Of a DNA stretch of 64,000 nucleotides, positions 8,474 through 64,000 are shown in pieces (the first letter of the stretch is position 1; each line of letters starts with the position of its first letter). Source of the stretch: a virus (Duplodnaviria; Caudoviricetes); IMG/VR virus record IMGVR_UViG_3300021400_001287, positions 1-64,000 of that record. The stretch is one strand, 5' to 3'. A model generated the notes under the pieces. The model was not told where the DNA came from and did not search any database. It saw nothing but the letters and a program-made list of their open reading frames with translations. Position numbers and translations under genes: made by a program.

Positions 8474-8767
8474 TTAAGCCTCCATCATATCAAGATCGAC
8501 ACGTTCTATGACAGCACGAAGTTCGAGACAGTGCAGATATTCGCCCATGGCGTGTTGCTGTTTGCGGAGCAACGACAACGGACAGTCATGGGGCGGCTCC
8601 AGCACCGGGTCGCCTATCATCGTCGCGGCTTCAATTTCATCACACAGCGCTTTCAGCTTTTCGTACCGGATCTTCGTCTGCGCGTATTCAGCGAAGAAAC
8701 GGGTCTTGTAGTTTTCATTACTCATCAGAGGAGCAGTGTTCGCGAGAGTCATCATCATTTCAGTCAC
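8474..8767 (-). CDS. conserved phage hypothetical protein
   Basis: ORF in operon; RFFAEYAQTKIRYEKL..CPLSLLRKQQHAM. Confidence 0.7.
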   Translation of the reverse strand: MTEMMMTLANTAPLMSNENYKTRFFAEYAQTKIRYEKLKALCDEIEAATMIGDPVLEPPHDCPLSLLRKQQHAMGEYLHCLELRAVIERVDLDMMEA

Positions 8768-9125
8768 CTCTTAAATAAGTCGGTTTGCACATCGGAGAGA
8801 CGTCATATTTTTCAACGGCTAAGTCGATCCCTTTACGGATTGTGTCAACGCCACGCGTTTCTATTGCTGTAAGCGCGTTCTTTATTGCTTCCTTGCGCGT
8901 ATGGCCACGACCAAAGGAAAGTCCCGTCCGCTCTTCGACGACGTACCACCAATAGCTATCGCGCTCATACGCTTCATTACTCTTGTAAACGTAAAGCGTG
9001 AGTCCGAAGTTGTTCTTCACTCTGGTGCCCTGCCGGGGGTAGAAACCCATTGTGCCATTGTCATTGGCGAAAGCATAGAAACGATCCATACAAACGCTCA
9101 CTTTCTGAAGTCGTCCGGATTCCAT
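8760..9125 (-). CDS. hypothetical protein
   Basis: ORF in operon with overlapping ends. Confidence 0.55.
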   Translation of the reverse strand: MESGRLQKVSVCMDRFYAFANDNGTMGFYPRQGTRVKNNFGLTLYVYKSNEAYERDSYWWYVVEERTGLSFGRGHTRKEAIKNALTAIETRGVDTIRKGIDLAVEKYDVSPMCKPTYLRGD

Positions 9126-10000
9126 CCAAGTTGCTCACAGAAAAGCTCCATCAGTCGACGAATATCGGGATGCGCGGCTTTGGAGAGACGAAGCGGCAAC
9201 ACCAACTTCTTCCACTGTTCGATTGTGCCCGTGGCGACGACTTCGGTTTTCAGCATATTCGGGAGTACGCAACGGGCTTTCTGGGGGGAAGCGCCAGACG
9301 CGATGAGAGAGCAATACGCGTCTTCGGCGGCCTGGCAACTCGCCCGGATGAACTGTGTGTCGGACATCTCTTGCTCCGGCCACCACCACGGCTCGACGAA
9401 TGTCAGCCCATCTTTGTAATTTATATATCTTGTGCTCTCCTGCGAAAAAGACAAACACCGATGACGCACCAGTTCATGGGAAACACCACGGTCACAGATG
9501 AAACGGGCGGTGATGATGTTGAGCTTGGGATCGGAAATCTGATCGCCATGATAAATGTGGCAATCTAGATTCTCTTCCACATCGACAGATTGCAAATGAA
9601 TATCCTCAAATGCCGGGTGGCCATAGAATATATGGCGAATAATTGTGGGGTCTGGAAAGTGTTTTACCAACGAACGCCAAGCTCTAAGATTGCCGCCGCA
9701 AATGCGCATATAAGGATAAGAAGTAGATGTGCGGATATAATGCGGAAGACCGGTATCTACGGTGTATTGATGGAGAATATTAGCAAATGCGTCATATTCA
9801 TACGCACCAAAGCTGACTAAAATATTACTATGTTCCAGCGGAGACTCATGACCACGTTTGATCAGCGCTTTGACCATCTTTTCTGCGGAGTCGTCCGAAA
9901 TTTTGGACTCACTCTTGTAACAGCAGCGAGCCCCAATTTCGATCCGCTTGAACAAATCCGGCTCGGTGATGATCTCGACACTCGGCTTAATGAACTTCAT
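9098..10000 (-). CDS. thyX: flavin-dependent thymidylate synthase
   Basis: HESPLEH, ELVRHRCLSFSQESTRY, LRLSKAAHPDIR. Confidence 0.95.
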   Translation of the reverse strand: MKFIKPSVEIITEPDLFKRIEIGARCCYKSESKISDDSAEKMVKALIKRGHESPLEHSNILVSFGAYEYDAFANILHQYTVDTGLPHYIRTSTSYPYMRICGGNLRAWRSLVKHFPDPTIIRHIFYGHPAFEDIHLQSVDVEENLDCHIYHGDQISDPKLNIITARFICDRGVSHELVRHRCLSFSQESTRYINYKDGLTFVEPWWWPEQEMSDTQFIRASCQAAEDAYCSLIASGASPQKARCVLPNMLKTEVVATGTIEQWKKLVLPLRLSKAAHPDIRRLMELFCEQLGWNPDDFRK

Positions 10001-16622: not shown

Positions 16623-16698
16623 TGGTACCGCCGGCGGGAGTCGAACCCGTAACCGCTGGGTTTGGGCCAGCTCCATATGCCAATTCTGGTACGGCGGC
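16623..16698 (-). tRNA. tRNA-Leu(CAA), short variable loop, C33
   Basis: cloverleaf GCCGCCG..AGAATTGGCATAT..GCTGG-CCCAAAC-CCAGC..TTCGACT..A-CCA. Confidence 0.8.
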
Positions 16699-16701
16699 GA
16701 A

Positions 16702-16778
16702 TGGTGGACGCACTTGGCTTCGAACCAAGACCTTCACGGTTATGAGCCGTGCGCTCTGACCAGTTGAACTATGCGTCC
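16702..16778 (-). tRNA. tRNA(CAT), Ile2-like
   Basis: GGACGCA..CACGG-CTCATAA-CCGTG..A-CCA, resembles Firmicute tRNA-Ile2. Confidence 0.85.
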
Positions 16779-16792
16779 AGAAGTGATAGAAT
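16764..16792 (+). promoter_or_regulatory. sigmaA promoter for antisense small ORF
   Basis: TTGAAC-17 bp-TAGAAT with TGn extension; predicted start ~16799. Confidence 0.55.
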
Positions 16793-16850
16793 AAAATAGA
16801 CCGGCAAGTGAATTGCTTCATCTCAATAAAAGGGAGGTGAAACAGGTAGG

Positions 16851-17006
16851 GTGTAGTCCAACATCGGGCTTTTGTTTGTGATCAAAGTGCTTTGGAAGCT
16901 GTATGTCCGGCTCTCAACACTTGACGAAAAGCCAACGGCTGGGCAATATATCATCCATGACATCGTAGACTAGATGATAGATGGGCTCTTTCTGATCCTG
17001 GAATAA
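16851..17006 (+). CDS. candidate 51-aa hydrophobic peptide with 2 in-frame TAGs (type I toxin-like)
   Basis: GGAGGTG RBS, GTG start (11-nt spacing); M*SNIGLLFVIKVLWKLYVRL..HDIVD*MIDGLFLILE. Confidence 0.5.
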
Positions 17007-17035
17007 AGAGTTGGGGTGCGAAACTTGCCGGTCAT

Positions 17036-17113
17036 TGGTCTTCACGGAGAGATTCGAACTCTCACTGACAGCAGCTTAAATGCCGTGCCTACTGCCAATT
17101 GGGCTACGTGAAG
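17036..17113 (-). tRNA. tRNA-Leu(TAA), short variable loop
   Basis: CTTCACG..AATTGGCAG..CGGCA-TTTAAGC-TGCTG..TTCGAAT..A-CCA. Confidence 0.8.
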
Positions 17114-17177
17114 ATGGAGTGGCCAGCCGGAGAGGAGATGGTCCCGGCCAGCCGATAAAATACCCCAAGCCAAGGGG

Positions 17178-17252
17178 TGGCAGAGCGTGCTGGAATCGAA
17201 CCAGCGAATGAGGGAGTCAAAGTCCCTTGCCTTACCGCTTGGCTAACGCTCT
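17178..17252 (-). tRNA. tRNA-Gln(TTG)
   Basis: GCCAAGCGGTAAGGC D-arm, CT-TTG-AC loop, G73-CCA. Confidence 0.92.
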
Positions 17253-17596
17253 ATATGTATCGGCAATTTTTTGAATTATTGCCGATAAGTATGCATCAAT
17301 ACACAAATGCAGTTAAGAAACAGTTCCAGGTTAAGAACACTATCCAGATGACGTCGAGTGGTCGGCTCCGTTCGCGCATTGCTTTACCAATTTCCCAGAC
17401 GATGAGCAACGCGAGAAAGCAGATGAGCCAGAATTTCAGTGTCGTCATTTAATAACCTCGAAGATGCAATTCCACAGATGCGCCACCGTCCAACCGAGAA
17501 AGGAGAAAGCCCACATAACCCAGAACCCAGGATGTTCTTTCTTCGCCCAATAGTAACTATTTGCGATCCAAAAAACCAGCATGACAACCCAGAAAA

Positions 17597-18091
17597 TCAA
17601 GAGATACATTCATTCACCCCCTCGTACCCCGCCATTCCGTCGAACCACTCATTCATCTCGTCCATCAATTCGGGATAATGGTCTTCGACGTACTTGAGAT
17701 AGAGATTCAGGTTTTCGACACGGGCTTTGAGATGCTCGTACTCGCTCACGTCAATATCTGAAAACGTAAGCTCGGACATGTTCGTCAGTTCATCGGCGAG
17801 TCGGTTGAAGAAGTTGGTCGACACGTCATCGTAAGTCTCGAATCCGGTGAGCAACATCTTCTTGGTGAGTTCGGACATTGCCGCGATGAACTTATGCTTG
17901 TCTTTTCTCGACACACGGCAACGGATGAAGACGAACGGCGTGCCATCCATTACCCATTCTTCATAGAAGCGGGGCGTGATGCCATGCTCGACGAAGATCT
18001 GGTCACCTTTGTATTCCGGGACATCGAAATACAGGAACTGTGTCGAAAATGGTGATCGGGAATAGAGCTCCATGTAGTTTGCCATAGTCAA
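17597..18091 (-). CDS. hypothetical protein
   Basis: RBS-led ORF inside the tRNA region. Confidence 0.7.
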   Translation of the reverse strand: MTMANYMELYSRSPFSTQFLYFDVPEYKGDQIFVEHGITPRFYEEWVMDGTPFVFIRCRVSRKDKHKFIAAMSELTKKMLLTGFETYDDVSTNFFNRLADELTNMSELTFSDIDVSEYEHLKARVENLNLYLKYVEDHYPELMDEMNEWFDGMAGYEGVNECIS

Positions 18092-18113
18092 TTCCTTCCT
18101 ATTATAATAGAGT

Positions 18114-18189
18114 TGGTGTCACCCCGTGGTAACGATCCACGCTCTGCGAATTTATAGTCCGCCGCTTTCACCGTGTAAGCTAGGGTGGC
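18114..18189 (-). tRNA. atypical tRNA, anticodon ATA (Tyr-like or degenerate)
   Basis: cloverleaf with CCA; GCGGA-CTATAAA-TTCGC; non-canonical T loop ATCGTTA; one acceptor mismatch. Confidence 0.6.
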
Positions 18190-18193
18190 AGAG

Positions 18194-18260
18194 TCGGGGT
18201 GGTGAGAGTCGAACTCACGACGCCGTGGATTCACGTACGTTGCCGCCGCGCTACACCCCG
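18194..18260 (-). tRNA. degenerate tRNA-Pro-like element lacking a normal anticodon loop
   Basis: CGGGGTG/CACCCCG acceptor and TTCGACT T arm intact; anticodon arm CGTG-AATC-CACG. Confidence 0.5.
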
Positions 18261-18378
18261 CCGGTGCGGTTTGCCAACGATATCTGTTGCGCACCAGATA
18301 TCAAGGCCATTCAGCAAAGTCTATCGGAGCGACACCGCCAGCCCCGCTTGTATCTGTAAATGACTTTGCTTACTTCGT

Positions 18379-18452
18379 GGAGTCCAGTTGGAGTCGAACC
18401 AACAAATTAGCGCTGTTTGATGCGCCCGCACTGCCCATTGTGCTATGGACTC
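18379..18452 (-). tRNA. degenerate tRNA with 8-nt anticodon loop
   Basis: GAGTCCA/TGGACTC acceptor, GCAC/GTGC D stem, loop ATCAAACA, TTCGACT; no encoded CCA. Confidence 0.5.
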
Positions 18453-28659: not shown

Positions 28660-31535
28660 TCAGATCATCTCCTTCCAATTAATGTCGTTCTCGTTTGCGT
28701 ATTCCGCCATCATGTCTATTGCCGACTCGTCGAATTCGTATTCGCAGTGAGCGTTGAGACTGGCGAAGAGCAATTCCCGCTGGTGATCGGTGAGCGGGAT
28801 CTCATATTCGCGAGCTTCTTCCGTCTGCCCACGATCGCCGACATACTCGAATGTGATGCAATTCTCGCATCCCGGCCAGACGCCATATAACGTGACGAAG
28901 AAGCGATAGTAGCCCTCGCTATCGAATTCCCCCGACTCGTCGAAGCAGGGCAGATGTCTATCCCGTTTACGTATCTCATCCGCCATTCGGTTCAGCGGCT
29001 CCGTATCGAACAATTCCAATGTGAGCGTGGGGGAGACGATAGGGAAACTGTCAAATATCTGACTATAGGACAGCCACGGTTCGGTTTCACGGACGGGTTT
29101 CAGATTGAGCACTTCGTTGTCAGTCAGCATTGATAACCACCTCCATCAAGTCGTTCGGGTTGAATTCCGGCCACGTCACTTCCGGTGTGTACGTTGCCAT
29201 CTTGCCATTCTGGAAATAGTCGCGGCTCTCGTCTTCAACATAGCCATTGGAATAGTCAACTTCAATGAGCGCTTCCGGGAATTCCGTTGACAAGTCAATG
29301 AGTTCGTTGAGCGAGATGCTCCAGTTGACATCGTTGACGCCATCGAAGTGCAACACGCCGCTCTCAACGGTGTAGCCCATCGCAAATGCCCATCTCAAAT
29401 CCCCGTCATGCTCTTCGTAAATCCAGCGCTGAACCGCATTCCACTTTCCTCGGGGCAAATTGCTGATGGTCATGTAGGCATGCATGTAATTGCTCACTCA
29501 AAATCCCTCCGATCAAAAATTCTCGTTATGAATGACACAAACTCCAGATTATTCATTCTATGCGGCAACATGTGTCTCAGATTGTGTCGATTTGCTCTCA
29601 TTTTCTCCGTCAACTTTTTCCACCAGACCGCCGCTCATGTCAAATAAACTCATCTTATCGAATTTCCAGTCATAGTACGGGCGGAGGGAGATGGGCGGCA
29701 TGTATACATCCAATTCTGCAAGTTTATACACAGCAACTTGCAAATGGATTCCGTCTTCATGAAAACGTTTCATCAGCCGACGGATTCCGTAGATGTTGAA
29801 CACAGCCGAGTGAGTGTCGCCATTCTCATTCCATCTCGTCAGATACTTCTTCATCGTCTCTCCTCCATTCTCCGGTAAACACCGTGATCGTGCATCCATC
29901 CGACGAGACATATTCCACATTCGGGTATTCCCGGATGATCTGCTTCTTCTGTTCCGGGTAGCTGATGTCAAAGTTGCGCTTGATATGGTAGATTCTCATT
30001 CAAAAATCAGTCCTTTCAATTCACAGTTGCGATAGAGCCATGTTCCAGCGTCATAGGCTGGCACTTGGTAAAACTTTGCCGGGCGGATAGCGTCACTTGC
30101 GTAATAAACAAACGCTTGATCATATTTTCTGCGATCGCGTTCCCGCCGAGCACGATATTCTGCTTCACGACGAGTGCAACGTTCAAAATGCTGCGACACC
30201 AGCCAAGATATGTCGGCTTTGTTATCCGCCCAAGCTAAGTCATAAACGTTGGAAAAGTCTCCCCAACGGATGAAGTACGTCTTCATTTCAAAGCCTCCTT
30301 AATCCGTAATTCTCCAGTAGTAGTCCAGCTCTTCGCCCTTCAAATGCGTTTCCGCGTAGTCTCTGGCCTCTTCCCACAACTTGCTATAGACACGGGCAAT
30401 TTCCGCGTGATCTCCGCCATCATCATACCATTGCCATATCTTGTGGTTCAGCACCATGACCAGCTCGGTCAGGTATTTGTAGTCGGTTTTCCATTCTCCG
30501 AACGCCCGCTTATATGTGTCTTTGATAGCCGGGATGCCGCCGCATTTTTCTGCGATGGTGAAGTCAGTCCAGAACGTGGTGAAGCACTCGTAATCAAACA
30601 GTTTCATAATTCCACCTCCACAATTCTCCAATCGTTGCAGTCATAACAAGCGCACATTCGCTCCCGGCTGATCACTGCGCTATACGACTCGTTCGCCCAC
30701 TCGTCCCGCCCATCATAGTCCCAGCATTCATCAGCGAACAATTCCTGCATGTGAGCAAACGCTGCTACAGGCGTGTCATGCACACCATCCAACCCCAAGC
30801 CATTCTCGGTATCAGAAATCAGAATGTACTTTTTCATCCTCACCCTCCATTCTCAGCGCCACATAGCCGTTTCCCAGCAGTCACGCCGCATTCACCCCCT
30901 CTTGAATTGAATCCCAGTCTGTGTCGCTCATTGCGCCCATGCTGTGCATCTCATACAACTCAAACCAACACTGAGCCAAGTACAACTCATCATGCCAGTC
31001 GGCGTACAGTTCATCGAATGGAACAATGTGTGTGGTGTCGCAGTTGATGATGAAGCGGCGCAATTCCCCGAACGGGACAGTCATTCCGCGATTGGTAATT
31101 TCATCGGCAACGAAGACGCCGAACGAGAACAGATGCTCACCATGCATTCCAGACGCGGCAGCTTTGCAACAGTCATTCCACTGGGCGATGAGCAGACGGT
31201 CGGGCAGGTAGCGAACGAGTGACTTGTGCCAAATTTTCATTGTCAGCCTCCATTCAACTCTTAAAGACAATTCCAAATTTCTGATAGTGTTTACGATAAC
31301 TTTACCATTCTCCGGTGTACTCGCCATTCCGTCTGGCTTTCTGGTATGCGGCATTCCGTGTCGGGGACGGTGTCGAGACGTACTGGATCCCAGCATTCGT
31401 CCGCCCGGCAAACCATTGCCCACCATCCTTCGGACTGTCAGCGCCGATGGAGTACACATGCCCGTCATCGAAAGAGAAGGCGTACCAGCCCTCGCCGATC
31501 TTCTTGATAGCAGTCTTGAAATTGGATTCCAGCAT
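28660..31535 (-). other. run of small hypothetical early genes
   Basis: packed ORFs 28660-29130, 29120-29497, 29996-30286, 30299-30607, 30604-30843, 30881-31240, 31302-31535. Confidence 0.7.
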
Positions 31536-47500: not shown

Positions 47501-48967
47501 GACTCCGTCAATACGCTCTGGGCACGGCAACCTGACTTTTGCCCGATTACAGAATTTGAGCCCCGTATTAAGACGACAATGCCCCTCTAAATTTACCCTA
47601 CCAAGTAGTCGTCCGAGCGGAGAAAACGCAAGCACGGTATTGACAATCATTAAATAGCAATAAAGGATGTGAATGGGTTTGATAAAGCTCGATAACGAGT
47701 ATTTTGTGACAGCGGATACGCGGTCGTTTGTGCTGAATCGGAAGTACAAACCCGAAGCCCCGAAGAAGAGCGACCTGAAGCCGAGAGAGACAACTGAATC
47801 CGTTGTCGGGTATTACAGCAACATCGCCCATTTACTTAACGCGTACCGCAAAGAGCAGATGCTCAAGTGGGTCGCTGGTGAGAAACTGACGCTGGAGCAA
47901 CTGTGTGACAGGATCAACGAGATGGACGCGACGCTCACCAAGAAGCTGGCGAAGTTGCAACAGATGGATCTTGGCGACGATGCGAAACCGAGGAGGCGGG
48001 GTAAGAATGAGAATGCGGAACAGACGGCCTCGTGATGCTTAGTAGCTTTGCGAAGGCAGGTATAACAATAACAATACAACAAACTGGAGGACAAGATTAT
48101 GATCCATGTGAAGAAGACCGAAAACGGCGTGATGGGATTTGGTTCGATCGAAACCAAGGAAGACGTTGAGAAGCTGATCAAGAACCTGGTCGAGATTCTG
48201 AGTTGTGCTGAAGAAGAGCCGGAACCCGAAGTCGAACCTGCTCCCAACGATGATCTGTTCGATGCGCTGGTAGATGCGCTCGGCTGGGGCGAAGACGAAG
48301 AATGCGACTACGATGAGTGCGAGTGCGAGTGTGAAGACGAAGACGCGGACGAAGACGAGCGCGATGGTCTGCCTCACGTCGTGTCTGTCGGCTACACGCA
48401 TGACTCCGACGAAGTGGTGATCATGAACGACCGCGACACCAAGTGGGGTCTTGCGGAAGCGTTTCTGCGTGCTGCCGCGAAAGTGTGGCCTATTGAAGAT
48501 GGGGAAGACGAGAGACTGAAGGGCGCGTTGCTGGAACTGGCGGGTGTTGCCCATGAGCATGTGGACCCCGACGACTGAATTCGACACGGCAACTGAGCCG
48601 TTTGTGTTGCTTGTAGACTGGGGCGGTAGTCTGCGTCTGGTGGAGCGGAAAGCTATTAAGAATGCGACGAAAGCTGGACCGTACTTCATCGGCGTGGACA
48701 CGCCGCCCATCAAACAAGAAATTGTACTGGAGGACAAGAGTCATGACCGAACTTGTACAACAGATCGAGAACCAGTGGATGACCTACAATGCAGCGATAA
48801 TCAACCATTTGCATCCGGACAAGGAGAAGCAGAGGCTGGCGAACATCATGATCAATAATATGACTGATATCCTTGCCGCACTTCGGGCGTACGAACCCGC
48901 GACCGACGTGATCATCACTGGAGATAAAGACGAGCCGCCCCGCAAGACCAGGAAGAAGGCCGACTGA
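41594..48967 (+). other. run of about 25 small hypothetical genes, many with CxxC zinc ribbons
   Basis: overlapping start/stop ORFs, all ending TAA or TGA. Confidence 0.7.
42864..43310 (+). CDS. HAD-family phosphatase (RNA-repair type)
   Basis: IFLDVDGVLN, VITSTWR, RGDEI..W, YVILDD. Confidence 0.8.
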   Translation: MKIIFLDVDGVLNNLLWARRMFDEGVNVFAKDMLEYRAIELLKRIIDATGADVVITSTWRMRAVQMTHLLDQLARFDIYPIAVTPRLNTDRGDEISAWMQHYDVESYVILDDDSDMDEHMDHLVQTSFEHGLQREHVERAIEILNGVN

Positions 48968-49395
48968 TGGCGAGCGTAAAGTTTGAATTGCGGAACGAGG
49001 GCAAAGGATTGCATGAGTGGGATTACGTCCCGCTTTCTGAACCGAGGATCGTGAAGATGTAGATTGAAAATCGCTCTAAGCTCGACCGCACGTACACAAT
49101 GAAGCTGTATGACAGCAGTCCATTGGTCTCTCAAGGTGTAGCTCCGATGTCCGAGCCGGTTACGGTCACATACTTGGACTTGGATCGTCTCATCAGCAAA
49201 TGCGAGCTGACGAAACTGGAGCAGCTCGTCCTGGACTTGTTGATGCGCGGATACACGCGGAGTGATATCCGGGACGACACGAACTTGACAATGGAGACAA
49301 TTGTTTCATTGTTGACCTCGGCAGTTGAGAAAATCGTGGAAATGAACGAGTACGAATGGCACAGAAGTCATAGACAGATACGTCGTGACACATAA
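48967..49395 (+). CDS. sigma region-4-like HTH protein (in-frame TAG at codon 32, 49060-49062)
   Basis: ATG overlaps upstream stop; PRIVKM*IENRSKLD..LTKLEQLVLDLLMRGYTRSDI. Confidence 0.7.
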
Positions 49396-49436: not shown

Positions 49437-50150
49437 ATGGCAAGCACATTGCGCATCGTTGATCTGAATGGAAAAGTCATCAACGTGGTCAAGGGACAAG
49501 ACCAAACATGGCGCGAAGTCGTGTCGAGAGCAAACCTGCCGGCGCGTTTTGAGTTTTGCCTCCGCCATTGGATGAGCGATGATCCCATCGACACGGCGAC
49601 AGAGGAACACATCAAACAATACCTCGATCGTGTCGGGTATCTGCTCATTCAAGACAAGCCAGATTCGACCATTTTGACAGATTACAAAGAGTTGCGCGAT
49701 AAAGTGGCGCTGATCCCTGTGTCTGGGTTGCCCCAGCTAGAGAATTTGTTTTACGGCAGCCTGGACGAAATGACAGATAGCAATGTCGTGCCGGGCAGAG
49801 AGTCGTCCGAGCGGATGACCAAAGTCGAAGCAAAAGTGTATGGCGCGTTGATGCGACCGAAGAAGATCCCGAAGACGATCACGAAGCTGCAAGAGAAGCG
49901 CAAGCGAATTGATCAAATGCGGGCAACTTATCCTGGCGTCGTGACGGAGTTCATTCGTGTCGACACAAATAATGAGTTTGAGTATCATGGTGTGCGGTAT
50001 AAGGTTTCTTGGAAGCAATATGAGCCGAAGGTAGTATGCGGCGATCTGCTGTATGACATGGATCACATCGTGTGCATTATGGCAGATGACGGTGCGCATT
50101 TTTACGACGAAGATTTCGTCGAGGTAACGGATCACGTCTGTGTGGCGTGA
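49437..50150 (+). CDS. hypothetical protein
   Basis: 237-aa ORF with RBS. Confidence 0.75.
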   Translation: MASTLRIVDLNGKVINVVKGQDQTWREVVSRANLPARFEFCLRHWMSDDPIDTATEEHIKQYLDRVGYLLIQDKPDSTILTDYKELRDKVALIPVSGLPQLENLFYGSLDEMTDSNVVPGRESSERMTKVEAKVYGALMRPKKIPKTITKLQEKRKRIDQMRATYPGVVTEFIRVDTNNEFEYHGVRYKVSWKQYEPKVVCGDLLYDMDHIVCIMADDGAHFYDEDFVEVTDHVCVA

Positions 50151-50156
50151 CCCCAA

Positions 50157-50236
50157 CGGGGCGTAGTAGAATTGGCATATACGGGGGACTCTAAATCTCC
50201 GCCGTTTTATGGGTTCGAATCCCATCGCCCCGACCA
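50157..50236 (+). tRNA. amber suppressor tRNA (anticodon CTA), tRNA-Leu-like
   Basis: perfect 7-bp acceptor CGGGGCG/CGCCCCG, GGGGA-CTCTAAA-TCTCC, ATGGG-TTCGAAT-CCCAT, A73-CCA; anticodon at 50191-50193. Confidence 0.93.
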
Positions 50237-50255: not shown

Positions 50256-51392
50256 ATGGACAGGAATGCGGTATTGGCTATTTTGAATAAAGTGACTGGC
50301 GCTTCGGATTAGGACTGGAGCGAGATCGCGGAGCTCTATCATCTCGACATGCACCCGGATACCCTGCGTAAAGCTGGTGCCGGTGTGAAGATGGTGGCTG
50401 ATGCTGGACTATTGGCTGTACCGAACACGGAAAATAAATACCGTGACGAATACATCGCGAAGAAGCAATTCTTCGACCAGCGTCGTGAGTACAACGCGGT
50501 CTTGGCCCGAGAAGCACGGGGAGATCATCTGCTGGAGTGTCTGCGTGAGTCGGCTGAGAAGCTGAATGAGCAGATGCCTTTGCTCAATAAAGGTGGAGCA
50601 TCGACACAGACTTCGACGACGGAGGCTGTGTTGGTGTTGACCGACTGGCATTACGGTATGGTTGCCAACAACGTATGGAACAAATATGACACGAACATCT
50701 GCAAAGAGCGACTGGAAGAGCTTCGACAAAAGGTTGCCTATAAGCTGGCTCTCCATGATGTGACAATACTCCATGTGTTGGTGTTGGGTGACATGGCGAA
50801 CGGTGCTATCCATGTGACGAGTCGTGTCGCGGCTGAAGAGCACGTGGTAGATCAGCTGATGCAGGTCAGCGAACTTATCGCTGAGTTCGTGGATGACTTG
50901 GCCAATCGAGTACAATACACTCAAATCTATTGCACCTACGGCAATCACATGCGGACGGTCCCGAACAAGAAGGACTCTATCCACGCGGACAATATGGAAC
51001 GGATTATTCCGTGGTGGCTGGCACAGCGCTTTAAGACGCGTGACGACGTCGTGGTAGCTGAGACCGGAAAAGACGAGATGCTCCGGGCTGTGGTGTGCGG
51101 CGCTGAAGTTTGCGCGGTGCATGGCGATCTGGATGGTGGCAAAGACGCGGCGCTGGCTCTGAGCCAGATGTACGAGCGGGCTTTCGGTCGGAAGATGCAG
51201 TATCTCTTCACCGGTCACTATCATTCAATGCTCGATACGGAGAACTACGGCATCACGTCGATCCGGGCGGGCGGGATGTGTGGCGTCGATGAGTACGCGA
51301 AGAACGCGCGATTGTTTTCGACACCGTCTCAGACATTGGCAATATTTGATCGTGGCGAGCTGGACGCACTGTATCATATCCGGTTGAGGTGA
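50256..51392 (+). CDS. calcineurin-like metallophosphoesterase (in-frame TAG at codon 19, 50310-50312)
   Basis: SD*DWSEI..HPDTLRK; TDWHYG, LGD, YGNH, VHGD, GHYH. Confidence 0.85.
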
Positions 51393-51396
51393 TAAC

Positions 51397-52260
51397 ATGG
51401 CAAAGAAAAGTCCTGAAAAGATGTGTCTGCGTTGCCATGAGATCAAGCCGTAGGATGAGTTCTATCACAACCGCGGTTGGGCGGAACAGCAGTACGCTGA
51501 TACGGTGTGTCGCGAGTGCGCCAGATCATTGGTGCATTGCAAAGACGACGCTCGTAAATATTGCTGGGATAACAATCGCGTCTGGAATGACAAGATATGG
51601 GACGCCGCCCATAACAAAGCGATGTACATGCTGGCGAACAACAAAGAGTACCTCAGCAAAAATACATCGAAAAAGAGAAAAGACGAAATTGAGCTGGCTT
51701 ATACGTCAACTCAATTTTTTGCTGTCATGAACACCGCGCCGCTGTATCGGTTTGTGGAGAACCGAGACGATGAGTACGATCCGGACTCTGTAGCCGGTAC
51801 GACCCAGGAACTCGGCACCACACGGGATGACGACGAACTGGTCTGGAGCGACGAGTGGAATGGCATGTACAAGAAGCGGGAGCTTCGGTATCTGGATGAT
51901 TATTTCCAACGGTTGCAAGATGAATTCGTCATCGACAACGTAAACCGTGAGGACTACGCCCGACGGGTGGCGAAGGCGTCACTGGAAGCCGATAATAAAT
52001 ACCAGAAGATGCGGCAGGGCACTGGCACAGCGAAAGAGTGGCAGGAAGCTCAGAGCATGTTTGACATGCTGAGCAAGTCAGCGTCGTTTGCTGAGAGCCA
52101 GAGAAAAGAAGTCGCCAACACGTCGACGAACGCGTTGTCCACTATCATCATGGACATCGAACTCAACCACCACAATGAGATGCCCAAGGTGACATTTGAG
52201 AAAGACGACATCGATCTCATACTCAGAGACTTTGGCTTTACCGGGGAGGCTATCGCGTAA
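51397..52260 (+). CDS. Zn-finger protein upstream of TerL, possible terminase small subunit (TAG at codon 19, 51451-51453)
   Basis: CLRCHEIKP*DEFY..CREC zinc finger is complete only with readthrough. Confidence 0.7.
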
Positions 52261-53915
52261 TGCCCCGTATCGATCAAGTTAAAGATATCAAGAATTACGC
52301 GCAGTGGTGGACTCAGATATAGTTCTGGCGGACGCACCTGGACGTGTTTATTCAGCAATACTTCAGTGTGAAGCTGAAAGACACGCAGCAAGTCATCGCG
52401 AGAGCGGTCGGTCTGGCGAGTAACAGTCGGATCGTGAAAAGCCGCGGATATGGCAAAACATGGCTGATCGCCTGGTGCGCTGTGGCGATTGCAATCTTGT
52501 ATCCCGGCACCTCGATCGGTGTCGTGTCGGCCACTGCCGCTCAAGCGACACTGGTCTTGAAAAAGATCAAGAAGTTCACGCGGCAATATTCAATCCTGGC
52601 CGGCGAGATGGTGTCGACCGGCAAAGACTTCGTTCGTATCTCGAAGGATAAAGGTTACTGTGAGTTTTTGAACGGCTCGTCCATCGAGTCGTTTTCGATC
52701 AACCAGGTTGTTGGTGAGCGTACCAAGGTGCTGATCATTGACGAAGCGCCCAGAGCTAACGAACAGGATATCAAGAAGAACGCCGAGCCGACGCTGAACA
52801 CAACGCGTGACTGTTGTATCCAAGGTGGTTACGATGACTTCAGCTCGAAGATCATCTATATTACCTCCGCCTGTTTGAAGAGTAACTTCTTCTACAGGGA
52901 CTTCGTGAAAGCCTATGAAGCGATGCGGAGTGGCGACCCGACATCATTTGCGTGTGTGTTGAATTATCAGAGCGCCGTGCGATGCGGGTTGACGAAAGCC
53001 AGTTATTTTGAAGGTCGGAAGAAAGCGTTGCCGGAGAGCGTATTTGCCACGGAATATGGCAGTTACTTCCTCGGCGCTGAAGCCGGTACGCTGTTCCCGT
53101 TCGACTTGACGGACACCGTGCGGACACTTCGCCGCGTTGAAGCGAAACAGCCGAAGAACAGCAAATGCTGGTACATCATATCTATTGACTTGGCCAGTTC
53201 CGATGCGAAGGGCGCGGACAACGCTGTGCTGGTGGTCATCAAGTGCGTGGACAAAGAAGACGGCACCGTGATGAAGAACGTGGTGTACATCCGATCGTAT
53301 CACGGCTGGCGACTGAACGCGTTGGCAAATGAAGTGCGCAAAGTCTATGTTGCGTTCCCCGGAACAGTGCGTATTATCTACGACGCGAAGGGATTGGGCT
53401 TTTCGTTTGCACAATTCTTCTCCGAGCCGTGGATCGACGACGCAACCGGTAAAGAGTATGAGCCGTGGACAGACGAGCATACCGCGATCCCCGGCGCGAA
53501 TCCAATATTGTTTGCCTTCAAAGCGACGCCGGTGTTGAATGTGCAACTGGTATCTACGTTGCGCGTGGCGTTGGAGCAAAAAACAGTGGCGTTCCCGGTG
53601 CCAAGCACGGATATCGACGACGTGATGGTGTCGGAGGAAGATGACGACGAAGGCGAGAAGATCGTCCGGCTGTCGATGGAGGAGAGTGCCATTTATCTGG
53701 AGGCCGACGCTTTGCAAGTGGAGCTTGGATCCATCGTATCAAAGAGTACGATGGCCGGCAACGTCGTTTACGATACCGAAAAGAAAAATCAACACAAAGA
53801 CAGATACTCGGCGCTGGCGATGGGCGTATGGTACATCAGCCAGGTCGAGGACGATAATAAACGCCGGTTGCGGAACCGGGGCAATGCTTGCATTGGCATT
53901 GTTGACAGCTTTTGA
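52260..53915 (+). CDS. terL: terminase large subunit (TAG at codon 21, 52320-52322)
   Basis: SRGYGKT Walker A, LIIDEA Walker B, IDLA..ADN and KDRYSAL nuclease motifs. Confidence 0.92.
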
Positions 53916-53929
53916 TGGGAGGAAAAAGT

Positions 53930-55510
53930 ATGGCGGCATTTTGGAGACGGGGGAATAAGACGCAGCCCGTTGAGCCCCCGAAAGTCCGTCCCGCCGTATG
54001 CGTGAGCGGCGAGGAAGCCAAGGTTGATGTTGGGCTGACTTATGACAACTCCAATATCACGATGGCAGCTTGGATGCCCGGAGTGGACTACCGCGCCATT
54101 CTGATGGACAAGCAAGCGCACATCTATGACCTGTACGCCTAGGCGGACTACTTCGTCGACGCGGATCCCATTTTTCGTGGCATCATCAAAGGTGTTTACA
54201 CGCCGTTCAGTGTTTCTGAATGGCGGTTGGAGGGCACCAATGACCGGGTCAAGGAAAAATACGAAGACTATTATCTGCGCATTCACTTGCGGGATAAGAT
54301 GTGGTCGATCTTTTATCAGTACTTCAAGTATGGGCAAGTGTTCGTTTACTTGAAGGATGATGGAGATATTATTACATTGCCGCCTCATCGGTGTCGTATT
54401 GCGAACGTGATGGTGGCTGGCGAACCCATTGTGGAGTTCAATGCGTTGCAGGTGGCCATTGACCTTGGCTATCGCAAATACGATTCGCTCCAAAAATGGT
54501 TAGAGGACGACAAATTCGAGGTGAGGATGAGAGGCTATCCCCCCGAAGTAACGACCGCCCTGAAAGATGGCAAAGAGTGGGTTCAGCTGAACCCGATGAG
54601 GACGTTCGTTTTGCAGGACATCAAAGAAGACTGGTTGCGATATGCTATACCATTGATCGCGGCGGCACTGCTTGCGCTTCAGAAAAAAGCCATGATCTCG
54701 AATTACGAGAACTCGACTTTGAATATGATGGTGCATAGCTTCCTCCACGTCCAGTACGGTGACGCGACCAAGAACGCTGATTTCCTGCCGAACCAAAACG
54801 AGCTTCAAGCTCTGAACACTCTGTTCAAAGCGGCCATGTCGAAGAATGGCACTGGCATCGCGACCACGAACGTGTTTGCGAAAGCACAGTTCATTCAGCC
54901 GGACATCAACGACCTGTTCGACAACGACCTGTACTCCAATGTCAACAACGAGATTCTCTCGGCTGGCGGCATCAGCGGTATCATCGTGAACGGGTTGGCA
55001 GAAGACGGATCGAGCTTCGCCAGCGCTCAAGTCTCCATGCAGACGGCGGCGTTGCGCATCAAACAAGCGCGGGACAACTTCTGTGAATTAATGAACAAGA
55101 TCAACGTGCGTCTCAACGGCGGCATCCTGCCTCGGAGCAAAGACGAGAACGTGCCTACGTTCAAGTTCCCGCCGGTTGATCTGACGGGGAGCGGTAAGTT
55201 CTATGAGACTTGCCTCAACCTGTGGAAATAGGGCGTGCTGAGTACCCGGACCATGATGGACGCTCATGGGTTCGACATGGAGCAGGAATTCAGACGGCGC
55301 ACCGATGAAGACGATAGCGGCGTTACGAAAACCATGTCGCCACGTCAAGAGACGCAAAACGAGGAGAGCGACACAAACCAAAGCACCGACACCGACGTCA
55401 GCAAAAAGGTCGGTCGACCGACACTTACCAATGACGAACGGCAAAGCGATCCGGCTGATGCTTTGACTGGACGGCAACCGAAACCGAGCTCTCCGGATGG
55501 ATCACTTTAA
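53930..55510 (+). CDS. portal protein (TAGs at 54140 and 55229)
   Basis: three track ORFs in one frame joined by TAG readthrough to 526 aa; position after TerL. Confidence 0.8.
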
Positions 55511-55561
55511 TCACACTGTCGGCTCCTCCTAGCCGACGGAATGATAAATGAGGTGGCAAAC

Positions 55562-56872
55562 ATGCAGAAATTTGTTATGGCCGCTTCGGACATTTCTCTG
55601 GATTATCCGCAGAGTAATGAAATTTACTTTTCTGTAACAATGCGGATGCTGACAACGGAAACCAACTAGAATGGCGTCCGTCTGACCGCTGGTTTTATCG
55701 ACGATATTGCAACGCATGCGGAAGAATATGTATGTATGCCGCTGTGTGCCGACGTGGATCGGCTGGCTCGCGGCTTGGACATCGGCCTCACTCACATGTA
55801 TGATGAGCAACGGCAGGTGTTCGAAGCGCCGCAGGTCGGCAGTTTTTTTGAGGTGCATAGAGAAGACGACGAGCACGGAGTTAGCTTGGTCGGCACGGCT
55901 AGAATTAACAAGCGCAATGCCAATGTGACTGATAAGATCATCGAGATGTTCAACACCAACCGGCTCAAGTTCAGCTTTGAAATTTGGGCGAGTGAGGTGT
56001 ACGAAGAGGACGGAGTGACGGTGGTTGACGCCGCGCCGGGTAACCGGTTGACGGCGATGGCTATCGTTACCACGCCGGCTCTCCCCGCTGCTGTGGCTCT
56101 GAACCTGGCGGCGGAGGTGGATATTGACGCGTTCCGTGGCAAAGTCTATGACTTGCTGTGGACGAAGTATCCGAGCGAGTGCTGGAACGTTGTCTGGATG
56201 GGTTTGGATTACGCCGTTATTTACTTTTCTGAGCACGGCAATATGGTACGCATTGCGTATCGTATGGATGGTGACAAACTCGTCGAGACGGAGGAATACG
56301 AAGTTGGCTTCGCACGAATTGACGAGGTGAGTGACAACATGAATATTACGCTGGCAACCGCCGAGGTGACCAACGTGGAGACCCCCGATGTGAACGAGGT
56401 GTCCGCTGTTGCCGATGCGGTTATCAATACTGACACAGTGGAGACTCCCGCTGTGGAAACCGAGACTGCTGCTTGCGGCGATCCCGAAAACGCGGCTTGC
56501 GATGACAAGACGGCGGAGGTCGAAAACGACATCGATGACGACATCAAAGACGAGTCGGACGACGATGCCCATGACCTGGAAGAGATGCGTCGAGAGCTGG
56601 AGCGCGTGAACGCTGAACTGGCTCGATACAAGGCGGCTGAAGAAGCTGCGAAGATGGCGGAGAAGCGTGCCGCCGCAAAAAAGTACGCGGAGCGTGAACA
56701 CCTGAATCTGGAAGCGGAAGACGTTAAAGCGGCGATCGATAACGCCGACTATGAAGCGCTTGCTGCTGCCGTGATGGCGAAGCCCGCGGACGACAAGAAT
56801 GAAGAAGCCTACCGTGTTACCGCGGAGATCAAGCTGTCTCCCTATGGCAACATGTTCGAGAAGGCGAACTGA
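55562..56872 (+). CDS. prohead protease/scaffold (TAG at codon 36, 55667-55669)
   Basis: GAGGTG RBS; ETN*NGVR, FSFEI, PA..A; acidic coiled-coil C-terminus. Confidence 0.75.
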
Positions 56873-57339: not shown

Positions 57340-58335
57340 ATGGAAACCATCACCAAGGACATGAATATTGTTAAGGCGTAGGCTGCTGACGCCCGCCACG
57401 AGTCTCTTGACTCTAACGTCCGCGAGAACATGAACAAGGTCGTTCATGAGCTGGCAGCGGATCGTAACCCCATGAACCTGTATCAGATCGGTCAGCTGAT
57501 GGCCTTCACTGTTGAAGAGCTGGAGCGCCCCATGACCAACTGGCTGGATCTCGTTGCCGATCATAAGCGCATTGGCGCTGGCGACGAAGCCGCTTTCCGC
57601 ACCACCGCGAACGGCATCCGCGCCGTCATCCAGGCCAAGGCTGGCACCACTCCCCGCAGCCGCGTTGCCGACAAGCAGATTGTCGTTGACACCGTTGCCG
57701 TGTCTGTGCGTCCCGCTGTGAACCTGCTTGAGCTGGCCTCCGGTAAGATCAACTTCGGTGACCTGGCCATGTATGCCGCTGTCGAGCTGGCCAACAAGAA
57801 GACTCAGTATGTGCAGCAGGTGCTCGACGCCGCCGCGACTTCCTTCGCCTCTCCTTTCTACGGCTCTGGCGCTGGTATCGTTGCCGCGACCTTTGATCCC
57901 ATGGTGCAGCACTGGATGCGCACCGGTGGCGCTGCGATTATCGGTGACATCGCTGCCGCACAGAAGCTGGCTCCTCTGACTGGCTTCACCGCCTCCACCA
58001 ACTCTCAGTGGGGCAATGGCATTATCGAGGAGTTCAATCGCACTGGCCGCATTGGCACCTACAAGGGCGCCCAGGTTGTGCAGACTGTGAACCCCTATCT
58101 GCCTGACGACGTGACCCCTGTGCTGAATATCAGCAAGCTGTATATCGTGCCCACCACGATGAACACTGATGCCCGCAGCCTGAAGGTCGTCGAGCAGGGT
58201 GGCGTGATCTCCGTGGAGAACACTTCCATCAACGAGCTGACCTACGAGGTCCGCATGGACGAGCACTTTGGTGCCGCCGTCGTGTACGGTGTGCAGCCCA
58301 CTGTGTCCGTGTACTACGACTCTACTCTGGGTTAA
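57340..58335 (+). CDS. major capsid protein (TAG at codon 14, 57379-57381)
   Basis: AAGGAG RBS + ATG 57340; 331 aa; high codon bias; synteny. Confidence 0.8.
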
Positions 58336-58864: not shown

Positions 58865-58881
58865 AAGTGGGGTGCAGGGCG

Positions 58882-59319
58882 ATGACAGATTAGACGACAT
58901 GGATGGACGACCTGTATCTGGATGTCCAATGGCAACGCATCCCCGTGGCGATGACGAAGATCGAAGAGATGCAACTCCTGTCTCGTTGTTTTGTACACGG
59001 CCTCGAATCTATGTTTATCGCCACTGGCAAAGCGATGCAATTTGACGCGGACTGGCTGACGTTTTCGGACGAAGGCGTGCTTGTCTCAACGACCCAGGAC
59101 TTGAAAATAGACGAGCTCCGGTACGCGTTTTTGAAGGCGAAAATCGAATTCTTCAAGCGGGTCCAAACTGACGTGAACAACATCGTTGGCTACACCACCG
59201 ACGCTTTGACTGTGACAAACGCGGACAAACCGTATCAAAACTTATCACAGACGATCGAAGGTCTGGAGAAAGAATTGCGTCAGATTTTCTACACGATGAT
59301 CCGACATGCTTATCTGTGA
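58882..59319 (+). CDS. putative head-tail adaptor (TAG at codon 4, 58891)
   Basis: MTD*TTWMDDL; synteny. Confidence 0.6.
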
Positions 59320-59329
59320 GGTGAGCGGG

Positions 59330-59587
59330 ATGATTGTGAAAGAAACACTTGCGACACGAAGCGGAGGCAAACAAGTCGTCATGACGCCGTTCAACGACTA
59401 TTGCGATCATCTGAGGGTGGACGTATTCAAAGCGCTTGGCGACGTCGAAGCAATGTGCGAGATGATGACTGGACAGTGTCGATGCGATTGGACAGAAAAT
59501 GAAGTCGAAGCGTATAGCAAAGTGCGGTCGCGGCTTTTGAACCTGGCTGGCGCTGTGGCGCGTTAGCCCCAGAACTAGGAGGGGTGA
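59330..59587 (+). CDS. hypothetical protein (TAGs at 59564 and 59576)
   Basis: RLLNLAGAVAR*PQN*EG then TGA 2 nt before the next ATG. Confidence 0.65.
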
Positions 59588-59589
59588 CG

Positions 59590-60330
59590 ATGCAGAAACC
59601 AGCGGTCGTGCCGGCGAACTAGACGCCGAGCAATCGGACTTTTTACTAGCCGCCCACCATTCAGAGTGACTATACAAATTTGCTATGGCAAGATCATCCG
59701 CATTTCACAGAGACGTTTGAGCTGGTCCATAGTTGGATTGAACATTTGCGTACAGATGACCCTTAGTATATTCGCGCTACGTACTTCCCTGTTGACTGGA
59801 AGAGTAAGGTCGGCAATTCCGACGCGAGCGCGAACTTCAAGACGGATTGGAACAATCTGATCTGGAAAGGGGACTATATCATCCGCGATGGCGGGGAGAT
59901 ATTGCTTCTTACTTGGGATGTCAAAGAGCACATGAACAACCAAGCGACACAGGCTCAGATATGCAATTTGAAGCTGACGCTGGTTCGGCATGTTCAAGCT
60001 CAAGCAGATGAGCGCGGCTTCATGGAAGTACCGGCTCATGACGAGTATGTGCTTTATGAGCACCCGGCGACGTTCTCGCCGTACGCTGGTCGCCCGGACT
60101 ACATTGCGACGGCGAACGTGCCAGGTATCAATGCAGACGCTTTGATGAGCGGACAAATCCAGTTCAATGAAGAGACGAAGAAGATGACCATTAACGACGA
60201 GTTTGAGTACGGCGGATTTACGTATCGACTGATCAACGTGGACTGGTCTGAAGTCAACTACGATAACACGGCTGGCATCATCAATTTCAACTGTAAACGA
60301 GTGGCAGGTGGTATGAATGCTCCAGATTGA
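59590..60330 (+). CDS. putative head-closure/neck protein (TAGs at 59620, 59647, 59764)
   Basis: AGGAGG RBS + ATG 59590 in frame with track ORF 59902. Confidence 0.7.
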
Positions 60331-61442: not shown

Positions 61443-62282
61443 ATGGCTTATATTAAGACCCCTATGGGCTTTGTGTCCAACGCACCTCATATTTAGTTCC
61501 AGCGTTGTGACGGAGCTCGCTTTTACAGCGATACCGGTACTGCTGGTAGCATGACCAATACGGACAACTCGACCGCTGTTTACGGTGGCTGGGCGAAGTC
61601 TCCTATCGGTTATATTGAGGGCGACTCCACCATGGAAATTTCTTACACCGACGCGATGTTCTATCAAGACATGTTCTCCGTGTCCAGCGCCGGTACTGAG
61701 GTGACCACGAAGGATACCGCGGTGCGTGGCGGCGGCGTTTACACCGTTAAGACCGGTCCGATCGTCGAACTGCCGTTCCAGGTGAAGCTGGACACCATTC
61801 AGATTCACGGCTTTGATGTGTAGGGTACTGGCACCGCCGCTGCTGGTAAGCCTGTTGCCGCGTATGACAGCACCAACAAGAAGACTACGATTACCTTTGC
61901 TTCTGGCGATGTGGCGGTTGGCGACGACCTGATCGTGACTTATGAGCGCCGTGTGGCCAGCGCCGATGTGGCTACGATTACCACTAATGGCAGTTCTTCT
62001 CGTGGCAGTCTGACGATGACTTGGGCTGTTATGAGCGATGGCAGCGACTGCTCTCAGGCTTCGATCGTTGGTTTCCTGCATCTGCAAGTGCCTCGCGTCA
62101 TGGTTACCACCCGTGCGTCTCTGGACACTTCCCGCGGCACGGCTGCGACACCTAATATCGTGTTTGCTGCCATCGACGCCCACCGTGGTGATCAGAAGTG
62201 GTACGATCTGATTTGGGAACCCCTGGAGGATGGTGCTATCAGCACTGATTACGCCGAGGGCGACTTTGTTTGGGATATTTAA
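61443..62282 (+). CDS. major tail (tube) protein (TAGs at 61494 and 61821)
   Basis: AAGGAGG RBS; two track ORFs fused to 279 aa; T/G/A-rich; followed by terminator and chaperones. Confidence 0.75.
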
Positions 62283-63607: not shown

Positions 63608-64000
63608 ATGGCGGACAATCTGGTATAGGGGAAACTGCGGTTTGATACGTCGTAGATTGATAAACAATTGTCCGACGTCACGGCGAAGCTAAACGAAGTC
63701 AAGAAGATAGCGGCGCAAGCGAAACAAGTTGCCGGTGCGACAAAAACCGCGTCGCGGTCATCTGCCTCCAAGAGTGCGTCAACATCTGCGGACAAAGAGC
63801 AGTTGCGTATTATCAGAGAACTGAAGACATATACAACTGATTTAACAAAAGCGCAACGTGAATATGTCACAGCACTCAAGACGGGCAATGCTGAAAACGT
63901 GAACTATTGGAGCAATGAGACCAATAGAATAAAGGCATCTATCGATGCCCATAAAGAACAGGCGTCTGCGATCGACATGAGCCGCAACAACAGGGCTAAG
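63608..64000 (+). CDS. probable tape measure protein, 5' part (TAGs at codons 7 and 16)
   Basis: GAGGAG RBS; MADNLV*GKLRFDTS*IDKQL.., helical A/K-rich frame open to the window end. Confidence 0.65.

Follow-up and report, generated by a model that had tools for sequence, protein, structure and literature searches.

Which amino acid does a phage insert at UAG when it carries a tRNA with a CUA anticodon next to its late genes, and what role might such a tRNA play there? The question arises at an 80-nt tRNA gene on the plus strand (50157..50236) of the window analysed here, which comprises the first 64 kb (64,000 nucleotides) of a virus record that consists of one 91,208-bp contig and has direct terminal repeats. 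Genes lie on the minus strand up to approximately 37 kb and on the plus strand from approximately 40 kb. DNA near-identical to that of the phage is present in bovine and goat gut metagenomes from at least a dozen studies, and the MAGs that hold related contigs are labelled Clostridia, Eubacteriales, Aristaeellaceae and Candidatus Faecivicinus, plus one Alloprevotella-labelled bin. The phage is a rumen/gut phage of Clostridia, and the late module of its relatives contains the SPbeta-like phage families YonB, YomX, YomW and YomU. A search of IMG/VR with the terminase large subunit (TerL) alone as query returned no relatives; five close relatives (L003-L007) were fetched via portal homologues, with portal identities ranging from approximately 66% to 92%.

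A conserved CUA tRNA next to the late genes

ARAGORN calls the tRNA with the anticodon CUA at 50191-50193, and the Rfam tRNA family (RF00005) matches it with 50.3 bits (E = 8e-8), well above the gathering score of 29. The acceptor stem runs from C1-G72 to G7-C66 and is followed by A73 and an encoded CCA. The tRNA carries U8 and A14, the D stem consists of 3 bp (G10-C25, U11-A24 and A12-U23) with G13 and A22 unpaired, and the D loop AAUUGGCAU reads A14 A15 U16 U17 G18 G19 C20 A20a U21. The anticodon loop is CUCUAAA, the 8-nt variable loop GCCGUUUU has U48 as its last base, and the T arm is AUGGG-UUCGAAU-CCCAU. Every detail of the cloverleaf given in the initial annotation (CUA, A73, A14, A15:U48, A20a and a 3-bp D stem with G13/A22) is present in the sequence, and the two programs agree. 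ARAGORN labels any CUA tRNA as tRNA-Pyl, an identity that we considered and rejected. [quoted passage not shown]

The suppressor tRNA is real and under selection, as shown by synteny and covariation. A CUA tRNA is found directly upstream of the same phosphoesterase/exonuclease gene in 5 of the 5 close relatives fetched. Among seven family members, 98.6% of stem cells are paired, compared to 36-49% in slid controls, and both partners have changed in 16 of 20 stem pairs, which is not reached in any of 500 shuffles. These compensatory changes fall in the acceptor, D, anticodon and T stems. U8, A14, A15, G18, G19, C20, U48, A73 and the CCA end are invariant across the family, as is the whole anticodon loop among the suppressors. 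Position 20a is a U in L006 and L007, and the variable loop measures 5-7 nt in the relatives versus 8 nt here. We have very high confidence that the tRNA at 50157-50236 is a functional amber suppressor.

Only 6 nt separate the suppressor from the end of a preceding TAG-free gene (49437..50150, plus strand), for which profile searches gave no family match, and 19 nt separate it from the ATG at 50256; the first downstream TAG is located at 50310. The initial annotation had reported this 19-nt gap correctly, but had also described the downstream gene as the first amber-containing gene of the packaging/structural operon. This part does not stand, since alignment shows that a small gene upstream of the suppressor (48967..49395, plus strand) carries a TAG at codon 32 (49060-49062) that is common to 5 of the 5 clade members aligned (the window phage and four relatives). 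Nor is the gene 3' of the suppressor a packaging gene, as it encodes an exonuclease (phrog_284). The suppressor is probably co-transcribed with its neighbours and then cut out. Promoter-like sites in its vicinity are no more frequent than in shuffled sequence, and candidate terminator matches turned out to be the tRNA's own anticodon stem. A comparison of the stretch with three RNA-labelled runs and one DNA run yielded stray contigs only, and no RNA run was among those listed as containing the stretch.

In-frame TAG codons and the residues opposite them

Nearly every packaging/structural gene contains one to three TAGs, which stand at positions of Leu and usually fall among the first 50 codons. 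The metallophosphoesterase/exonuclease gene (phrog_284; 50256..51392, plus strand, as are all genes that follow) has a TAG at codon 19 (50310-50312), where relatives read SD-L-DW. The phrog_3314 gene (51397..52260) likewise has one at codon 19 (51451-51453), opposite I, V or L in relatives, and the TerL gene (52260..53915) has a single TAG at codon 21 (52320-52322), opposite QI-L-FWR. In the portal protein gene (53912..55510), TAGs occupy ORF codons 77 (54140) and 440 (55229), while a head-module gene with no family match (55541..56872) carries one at ORF codon 43 (55667; TN-L-NGV in relatives). The YonB-family protein encoded at 57340..58335, whose relatives have PF27364, is likely the major capsid protein and has a single TAG at codon 14 (57379). 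In a head-tail gene (58867..59319), the TAG is ORF codon 9 (58891), which is the fourth codon after a conserved start MTD. The small gene at 59306..59587 has TAGs at codons 87 and 91; relatives have M/L and L/I at these positions, showing that both are sense codons rather than stops. Further downstream are a YomX_C-related gene (59584..60330) with TAGs at codons 13, 22 and 61, and a virion structural protein gene (phrog_2729; 61443..62282), the homologues of which are YomU_Tube in relatives, with TAGs at codons 18 and 127. Finally, a 2130-codon gene starts at 63608, continues past the end of the window (64000) to 70000 in the genome, and has TAGs only at codons 7 and 16. Since the L003 homologue carries PhageMin_Tail, we take this gene to encode the tape measure protein.

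Once the TAGs are read through, the late genes abut or slightly overlap, and PHROG profiles span the TAG positions. By contrast, public gene calls for the clade are systematically truncated at TAGs, as exemplified by 301-aa capsid-family and 360-aa portal entries (P0001, P0005-P0013, P0121-P0137). TAG serves as terminator in just 1 of 56 early-strand ORFs (29558-29971) and 2 of 24 middle ORFs, and the genome thus avoids it as a stop. In a few ORFs (for example, 81955-82968, 89451-89999 and 90167-90742), a TAG lies close to the end and could be either a stop or Leu. The placement of the TAGs was assessed for 18 plus-strand genes (48967 to approximately 84300) relative to each gene's own Leu sites. 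The first 50 codons hold 16 of the 28 TAGs versus 5.5 expected at random among Leu sites, and none of 20,000 permutations reached this number. Long genes contain only one or two TAGs, at codons 7-21, with TerL (551 codons) and the YonB-family gene having one each.

To obtain information on the inserted residue, we treated TAG as a sense codon in the ORFs of the window phage and of seven related loci, sorted the ORFs into families, aligned each family and inspected all columns with a TAG in any genome. The eight related loci gave 48 usable TAG columns, in which one residue was counted per near-identical group. Leu accounts for 97 of 205 TAG-opposed residues (47%, 6.65x background) and Ile for 13%, and there is no Gln; these proportions come from a method that separates Leu from Ile or Met without certainty. 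BLOSUM62 scores summed over the TAG columns are 341 for L, 199 for I, 181 for M, 106 for V and -313 for Q. Within the recoded clade (five non-redundant genomes), Leu rises to 79 of 115 residues opposite TAG (69%), and K (3/115), Y (2/115) and Q (0/115) are rare or absent. In more distant recoded contigs (approximately 45% identity), Leu makes up approximately 50% of TAG-opposed residues. The Leu codons opposite TAG (CTG 36, CTT 18, TTG 16) roughly match overall usage. Contexts often differ at the TAG alone, with SD-X-DWSEIA versus SD-L-DWAEIV, QI-X-FWRTHL versus QI-L-FWRSHL, and LYA-X-ADYFVD versus LYA-L-ADYFVD as examples.

Individual columns vary in how informative they are. At the first portal TAG, Leu is present in 100 of 106 homologues and Q in five; we suspect that these five entries reflect the gene callers' code-15 translation of the homologues' own TAG. 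The YonB-family column contains L (29), A (24) and M (7), and the only close full-length homologue, the 87%-identical P0122, has Leu. Non-Leu columns are portal codon 440 (E/K) and one YomX-like site (T). A deep TerL search found S/T/A in the TerL column among homologues of at most 44% identity, and given this variability the column says nothing about the residue at such distances. Variability of this kind, as at portal codon 440 and in the distant TerL homologues, is what tolerant positions would be expected to show. Pairwise TAG tallies on a set of contigs with the D-arm-plus-CUA motif (L069-L075) were discarded, as the copies are near-identical and the ORF sets unfiltered. Taking these alignments together with the features of the tRNA described below, we consider it highly probable (about 0.85) that UAG is read as Leu, i.e., that the suppressor inserts leucine.

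Recoding extends beyond the closest relatives. L012, L013, L015 and L016, which are Clostridia MAG contigs with approximately 45% protein identity, have 9-21 in-frame TAGs in homologous late genes, opposite Leu, indicating that the recoding is older than the close clade. A pattern search of the three MAGs with distant recoded contigs, which are fragmentary bins, gave no CUA tRNA. Two standard-code relatives, L009 and L014, have neither in-frame TAGs nor a CUA tRNA in the fetched region. In L009, a reverse transcriptase (RVT_1) and a tyrosine integrase are inserted between the terminase and portal genes (7418-9976). A separate case is JAVBOM010000008.1 (L008/L011), a 300-kb contig of a Eubacteriales MAG with 9 in-frame TAGs in late-gene homologues. 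These homologues alternate with opposite-strand genes of cellular type (AraC regulator, M28 peptidase, nitroreductase, ferredoxin), and no CUA tRNA is present within 21 kb of them. Either a misassembly or an element of very large size or mosaic make-up could account for this arrangement.

A Leu-type tRNA body without the long arm

To examine the identity of the tRNA itself, we compared its D-arm (positions 8-26) with those of 62 distinct tRNAs collected from three Clostridia MAGs in which related phage contigs occur. Among these host tRNAs, the top-ranking matches are tRNA-Leu without exception, and tRNA-Tyr and a tRNA-Ser rank near the bottom. The geometry of Clostridial tRNA-Leu, G13-A14-A15-U16-U/C17-G18-G19-C20-A20a, is that of the suppressor. 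The proposal of a Leu-type amber suppressor made in the initial annotation is therefore supported from two sides, by TAG columns that align with Leu and never with Gln, and by a D-arm that is closest to tRNA-Leu of likely host relatives.

[quoted passage not shown] The suppressor has all of the E. coli identity elements (A73, U8:A14, A15:U48, A20a, and G18G19 at a distance of two bases from A15), but in place of the long variable arm of class II tRNAs (at least 10 nt) it has a variable loop of 8 nt. To our knowledge, all cellular bacterial tRNA-Leu have a class II long variable arm. The suppressor would thus act like a tRNA-Leu, yet without such an arm it is not a canonical member of this class. 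The earlier designation "tRNA-Leu body" is thus accurate for the D-arm, A73 and the hinge elements, but not for the arm. The data on the dispensability of the long arm come from E. coli and Aquifex; we infer that host LeuRS can charge the suppressor with leucine, for which a Clostridial LeuRS would have to tolerate the absence of this arm. A genome-wide six-frame search with positive controls detected no tRNA-synt_1, LeuRS domain 2 (1_2), 1b, 1c, 2b, 2d or RF-1. The claim that the phage encodes no synthetase thus holds for the six families searched in the 91-kb genome, and a single tRNA gene appears to be the complete apparatus of recoding.

Where does this tRNA come from? In the initial annotation, a single substitution in the anticodon separated it from the tRNA-Leu(CAA) that the phage itself encodes. 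That tRNA (16623..16698, minus strand; ARAGORN) is 76 nt long and has a short (4-nt) variable loop and C33 instead of U33. The D-arm 13-mer AGAATTGGCATAT is indeed exactly common to both tRNAs. However, the overall identity is 65%, no more than between unrelated tRNAs, which argues against an origin from this gene by a single change. The stated dissimilarity to the phage's tRNA-Gln was confirmed, since tRNA-Gln has G73 and a AAGCGGTAA D loop, versus A73 in the suppressor. A further phage tRNA with the anticodon UAA (17036..17113, minus strand; ARAGORN) is 78 nt long and has a short variable loop, A73, a AATTGGCA D loop and a 6-bp anticodon stem. The cluster to which these genes belong (16623-18452, minus strand) contains several odd tRNAs, all of which pass the Rfam threshold. 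They include a "Tyr(AUA)" with A34 and a C2/A71 mismatch, and one tRNA with an 8-nt anticodon loop AUCAAACA (ARAGORN "caaa") and without an encoded CCA. These odd tRNAs may decode normally, decode quadruplets or serve as decoys.

Outside the clade, the only full-length matches in an isolate-phage collection are 327 T5-like (Tequintavirus-like) records, with 78-79% identity and E values down to 2e-7; wherever the listed records annotate the tRNA, it is a 76-77-nt tRNA-Leu(UAA). The suppressor is as similar to the T5 tRNA-Leu as it is to the orthologous suppressor of a sister phage, and blastn of the suppressor against E. coli genomes gave no match. The T5-like tRNA-Leu(UAA) (tRNAL2 of AJ604531) shares with the suppressor the D-arm GAATTGGCAT, A73, an encoded CCA, U48 and a short variable loop. 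It differs in having the natural anticodon UAA, making it a sense decoder, and a variable loop of 5 rather than 8 nt; moreover, the hosts of T5-like phages are Enterobacteria, and T5 does not recode TAG. According to the annotation of AJ604531, swapping the anticodon to CUA produces an effective amber suppressor, with the inserted residue not named in the record.

An exact-motif scan of IMG/VR revealed further CUA tRNAs with the same D-arm. On two contigs of 64 and 31 kb (L069:3078-3161 and L070:6981-7064), the tRNA(CUA) is 84 nt long and has the Leu D-arm TGGCGGAATTGGCATACGCG, A73 and a stem-loop variable arm; judged by these features, a tRNA-Leu of canonical class II shape has become an amber suppressor in these other phages. 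Three other contigs of 82-108 kb (L072, L074 and L075) have a 76-nt tRNA(CUA) with the same D-arm, which adjoins tRNA-Lys(UUU) within large tRNA clusters, and two of these (L074 and L075) also hold a class II tRNA-Leu(CAA). The same Sup-Lys adjacency is found in L003 (Gly-Sup-Lys-Thr-Asn).

Competing readings and a possible late-gene gate

Several other readings of these data have to be weighed. TAG could still be a stop, with late genes starting downstream of the TAGs and the tRNA decaying or accessory, without a coding role. Most TAGs are indeed near 5' ends, the standard-code ORFs after them are still long, and gene callers have truncated the proteins of relatives in exactly this way. We nevertheless regard this reading as highly improbable: protein conservation continues across and upstream of the TAGs, as also seen from the PHROG profiles that span them; internal TAGs interrupt the portal gene, the long genes located between 71158 and 76307, and the tail-tube-family gene (61443-62282); with read-through, the end of one gene adjoins the start of the next; the tRNA is conserved with compensatory changes; and CUA tRNAs accompany TAG genes in 5 of 5 close relatives, whereas L009 and L014 lack both in the fetched region. 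Equally hard to credit is glutamine insertion by a code-15 suppressor of the kind found in crAss-like and Lak phages, even though no amber reassignment other than TAG->Gln has been reported for phages whose code departs from that of the host (bioRxiv 10.1101/2021.08.26.457843). CUA is one change away from the Gln anticodon CUG, but Gln is missing among the 205 TAG-aligned residues and the 115 within the clade, and A73, C1-G72 and the D loop set the suppressor apart from phage and host tRNA-Gln (G73, AAGCGGTAA). It is also unlikely that Ile, Met, Val, Lys or Tyr is inserted instead, or several amino acids through ambiguous charging, with the Leu signal representing a general hydrophobic preference. 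In favour of this reading, Ile (13%), Val and Met are likewise found in the TAG columns, LeuRS could recognise the tRNA less well without the long arm, and E. coli amber suppressors are often partly mischarged by LysRS or GlnRS through U35. However, Leu far outscores Ile, Met and Val, and is the partner of TAG in near-identical contexts; IleRS, MetRS and ValRS are strongly anticodon-dependent, and CUA does not serve them. For Lys and Tyr, the low counts opposite TAG (3 and 2 of 115) argue against insertion, and the D-arm of Clostridial tRNA-Tyr is among the worst matches.

Assuming that UAG is read as Leu, how might the phage use this? In the mechanism that we propose, the suppressor would be charged with leucine by the host leucyl-tRNA synthetase, and UAG would be read as Leu during infection. 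LeuRS ignores the anticodon, and consequently CUA would be tolerated and no phage enzyme needed. The suppressor belongs to a phage family of short-armed tRNA-Leu-like molecules that have kept the LeuRS elements and lost the long variable arm. Its gene is located at the 3' end of the middle (plus-strand) gene block, directly before the packaging/structural genes. As long as the suppressor is scarce, ribosomes would stop early and release short peptides; after it has accumulated, full-length late proteins would be made. The 5' ambers would thereby form a translational timing gate on the late genes, a proposal towards which we lean with modest confidence. Charging by host LeuRS and the timing and role of the gate are what we infer here, while the tRNA with its conservation and covariation, the alignment of TAG with Leu, the absence of the synthetase and release-factor families searched and the N-terminal TAG bias are direct observations.

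The principal competitor to the gate accepts that Leu is inserted, but sees in the TAGs a neutral or defensive codon capture, for example one that makes phage genes useless to competitors or the host. TAG is avoided as terminator genome-wide, as in full reassignment, one gene upstream of the suppressor carries a TAG, and promoter-like sites that might indicate late expression of the suppressor are no commoner than in shuffled sequence. The 16 versus 5.5 expected TAGs in the first 50 codons and the single TAG per long gene are, however, unexpected for a neutral seventh Leu codon, and we consider codon capture a doubtful explanation that still carries some weight. The wider form of the gate proposal, in which a clade of SPbeta-like phages of rumen/gut Clostridia reads UAG as Leu via one class-I-shaped tRNA-Leu that acts as a master gate, with an amber codon at a Leu site in the first few dozen codons of nearly all late genes, has in our estimation slightly better than an even chance of being correct. 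A class-I-shaped tRNA-Leu in this clade would imply that bacterial LeuRS accepts short-armed tRNAs in nature.

How does this compare with known systems? For phages with a code that differs from that of the host, only TAG->Gln and TGA->Trp have been observed (Borges et al., bioRxiv 10.1101/2021.08.26.457843). Similar to code-15 and code-4 recoded phages, the present phage has a tRNA(CUA), hosts with an apparently standard code, and TAGs concentrated in late/structural genes. A control of late/lytic gene translation and reliance on the host synthetase have likewise been proposed for recoded phages (bioRxiv 10.1101/2021.08.26.457843). Unlike in code-15 phages, the residue here would be Leu, the TAGs are preferentially in the first 50 codons, and neither a release factor nor a synthetase was found. 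The E. coli suppressor supP (Su6+; leuX with CAA->CUA) is efficient at inserting Leu, and expression has been gated by means of silent Leu->TAG changes (PMC7969014). In both supP with its engineered "leak dampener" and the phage system as proposed, Leu is inserted at UAG via an anticodon-independent LeuRS and translation depends on the suppressor (PMC7969014). However, supP is a cellular class II tRNA-Leu mutated in the laboratory, while the phage tRNA occurs naturally and its variable loop is short. Organelles and ciliates (NCBI tables 16 and 22; chytrid mitochondria; phyllopharyngean ciliates) give UAG the same meaning, but there UAG->Leu is part of genome-wide codes, whereas here a virus would impose it temporarily on a standard-code cell with one tRNA gene. 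The phage-recoding literature that we retrieved, with incomplete coverage, makes no mention of leucine, and the papers found there on UAG-to-Leu concern mitochondria and ciliates only. This would be the first phage with TAG=Leu and the first non-Gln amber reassignment in phages.

These observations have practical consequences for annotation. Code-15 gene callers put Gln in place of Leu and standard-code callers truncate, and many database entries of the clade are cut at the N-terminus. The short-armed Leu-type body offers a natural scaffold for suppressor engineering in Firmicutes, and the 5'-proximal ambers make the hypothesis of recoding as a late-gene switch directly testable. The restriction of known phage recoding to TAG->Gln and TGA->Trp has given rise to the view that no synthetases other than GlnRS and TrpRS can be hijacked. 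If true, the TAG->Leu clade would represent a third route, consisting of an anticodon-blind LeuRS and one 80-nt gene, and the late-gene gate would be a natural counterpart of the synthetic supP feed-forward "leak dampener".
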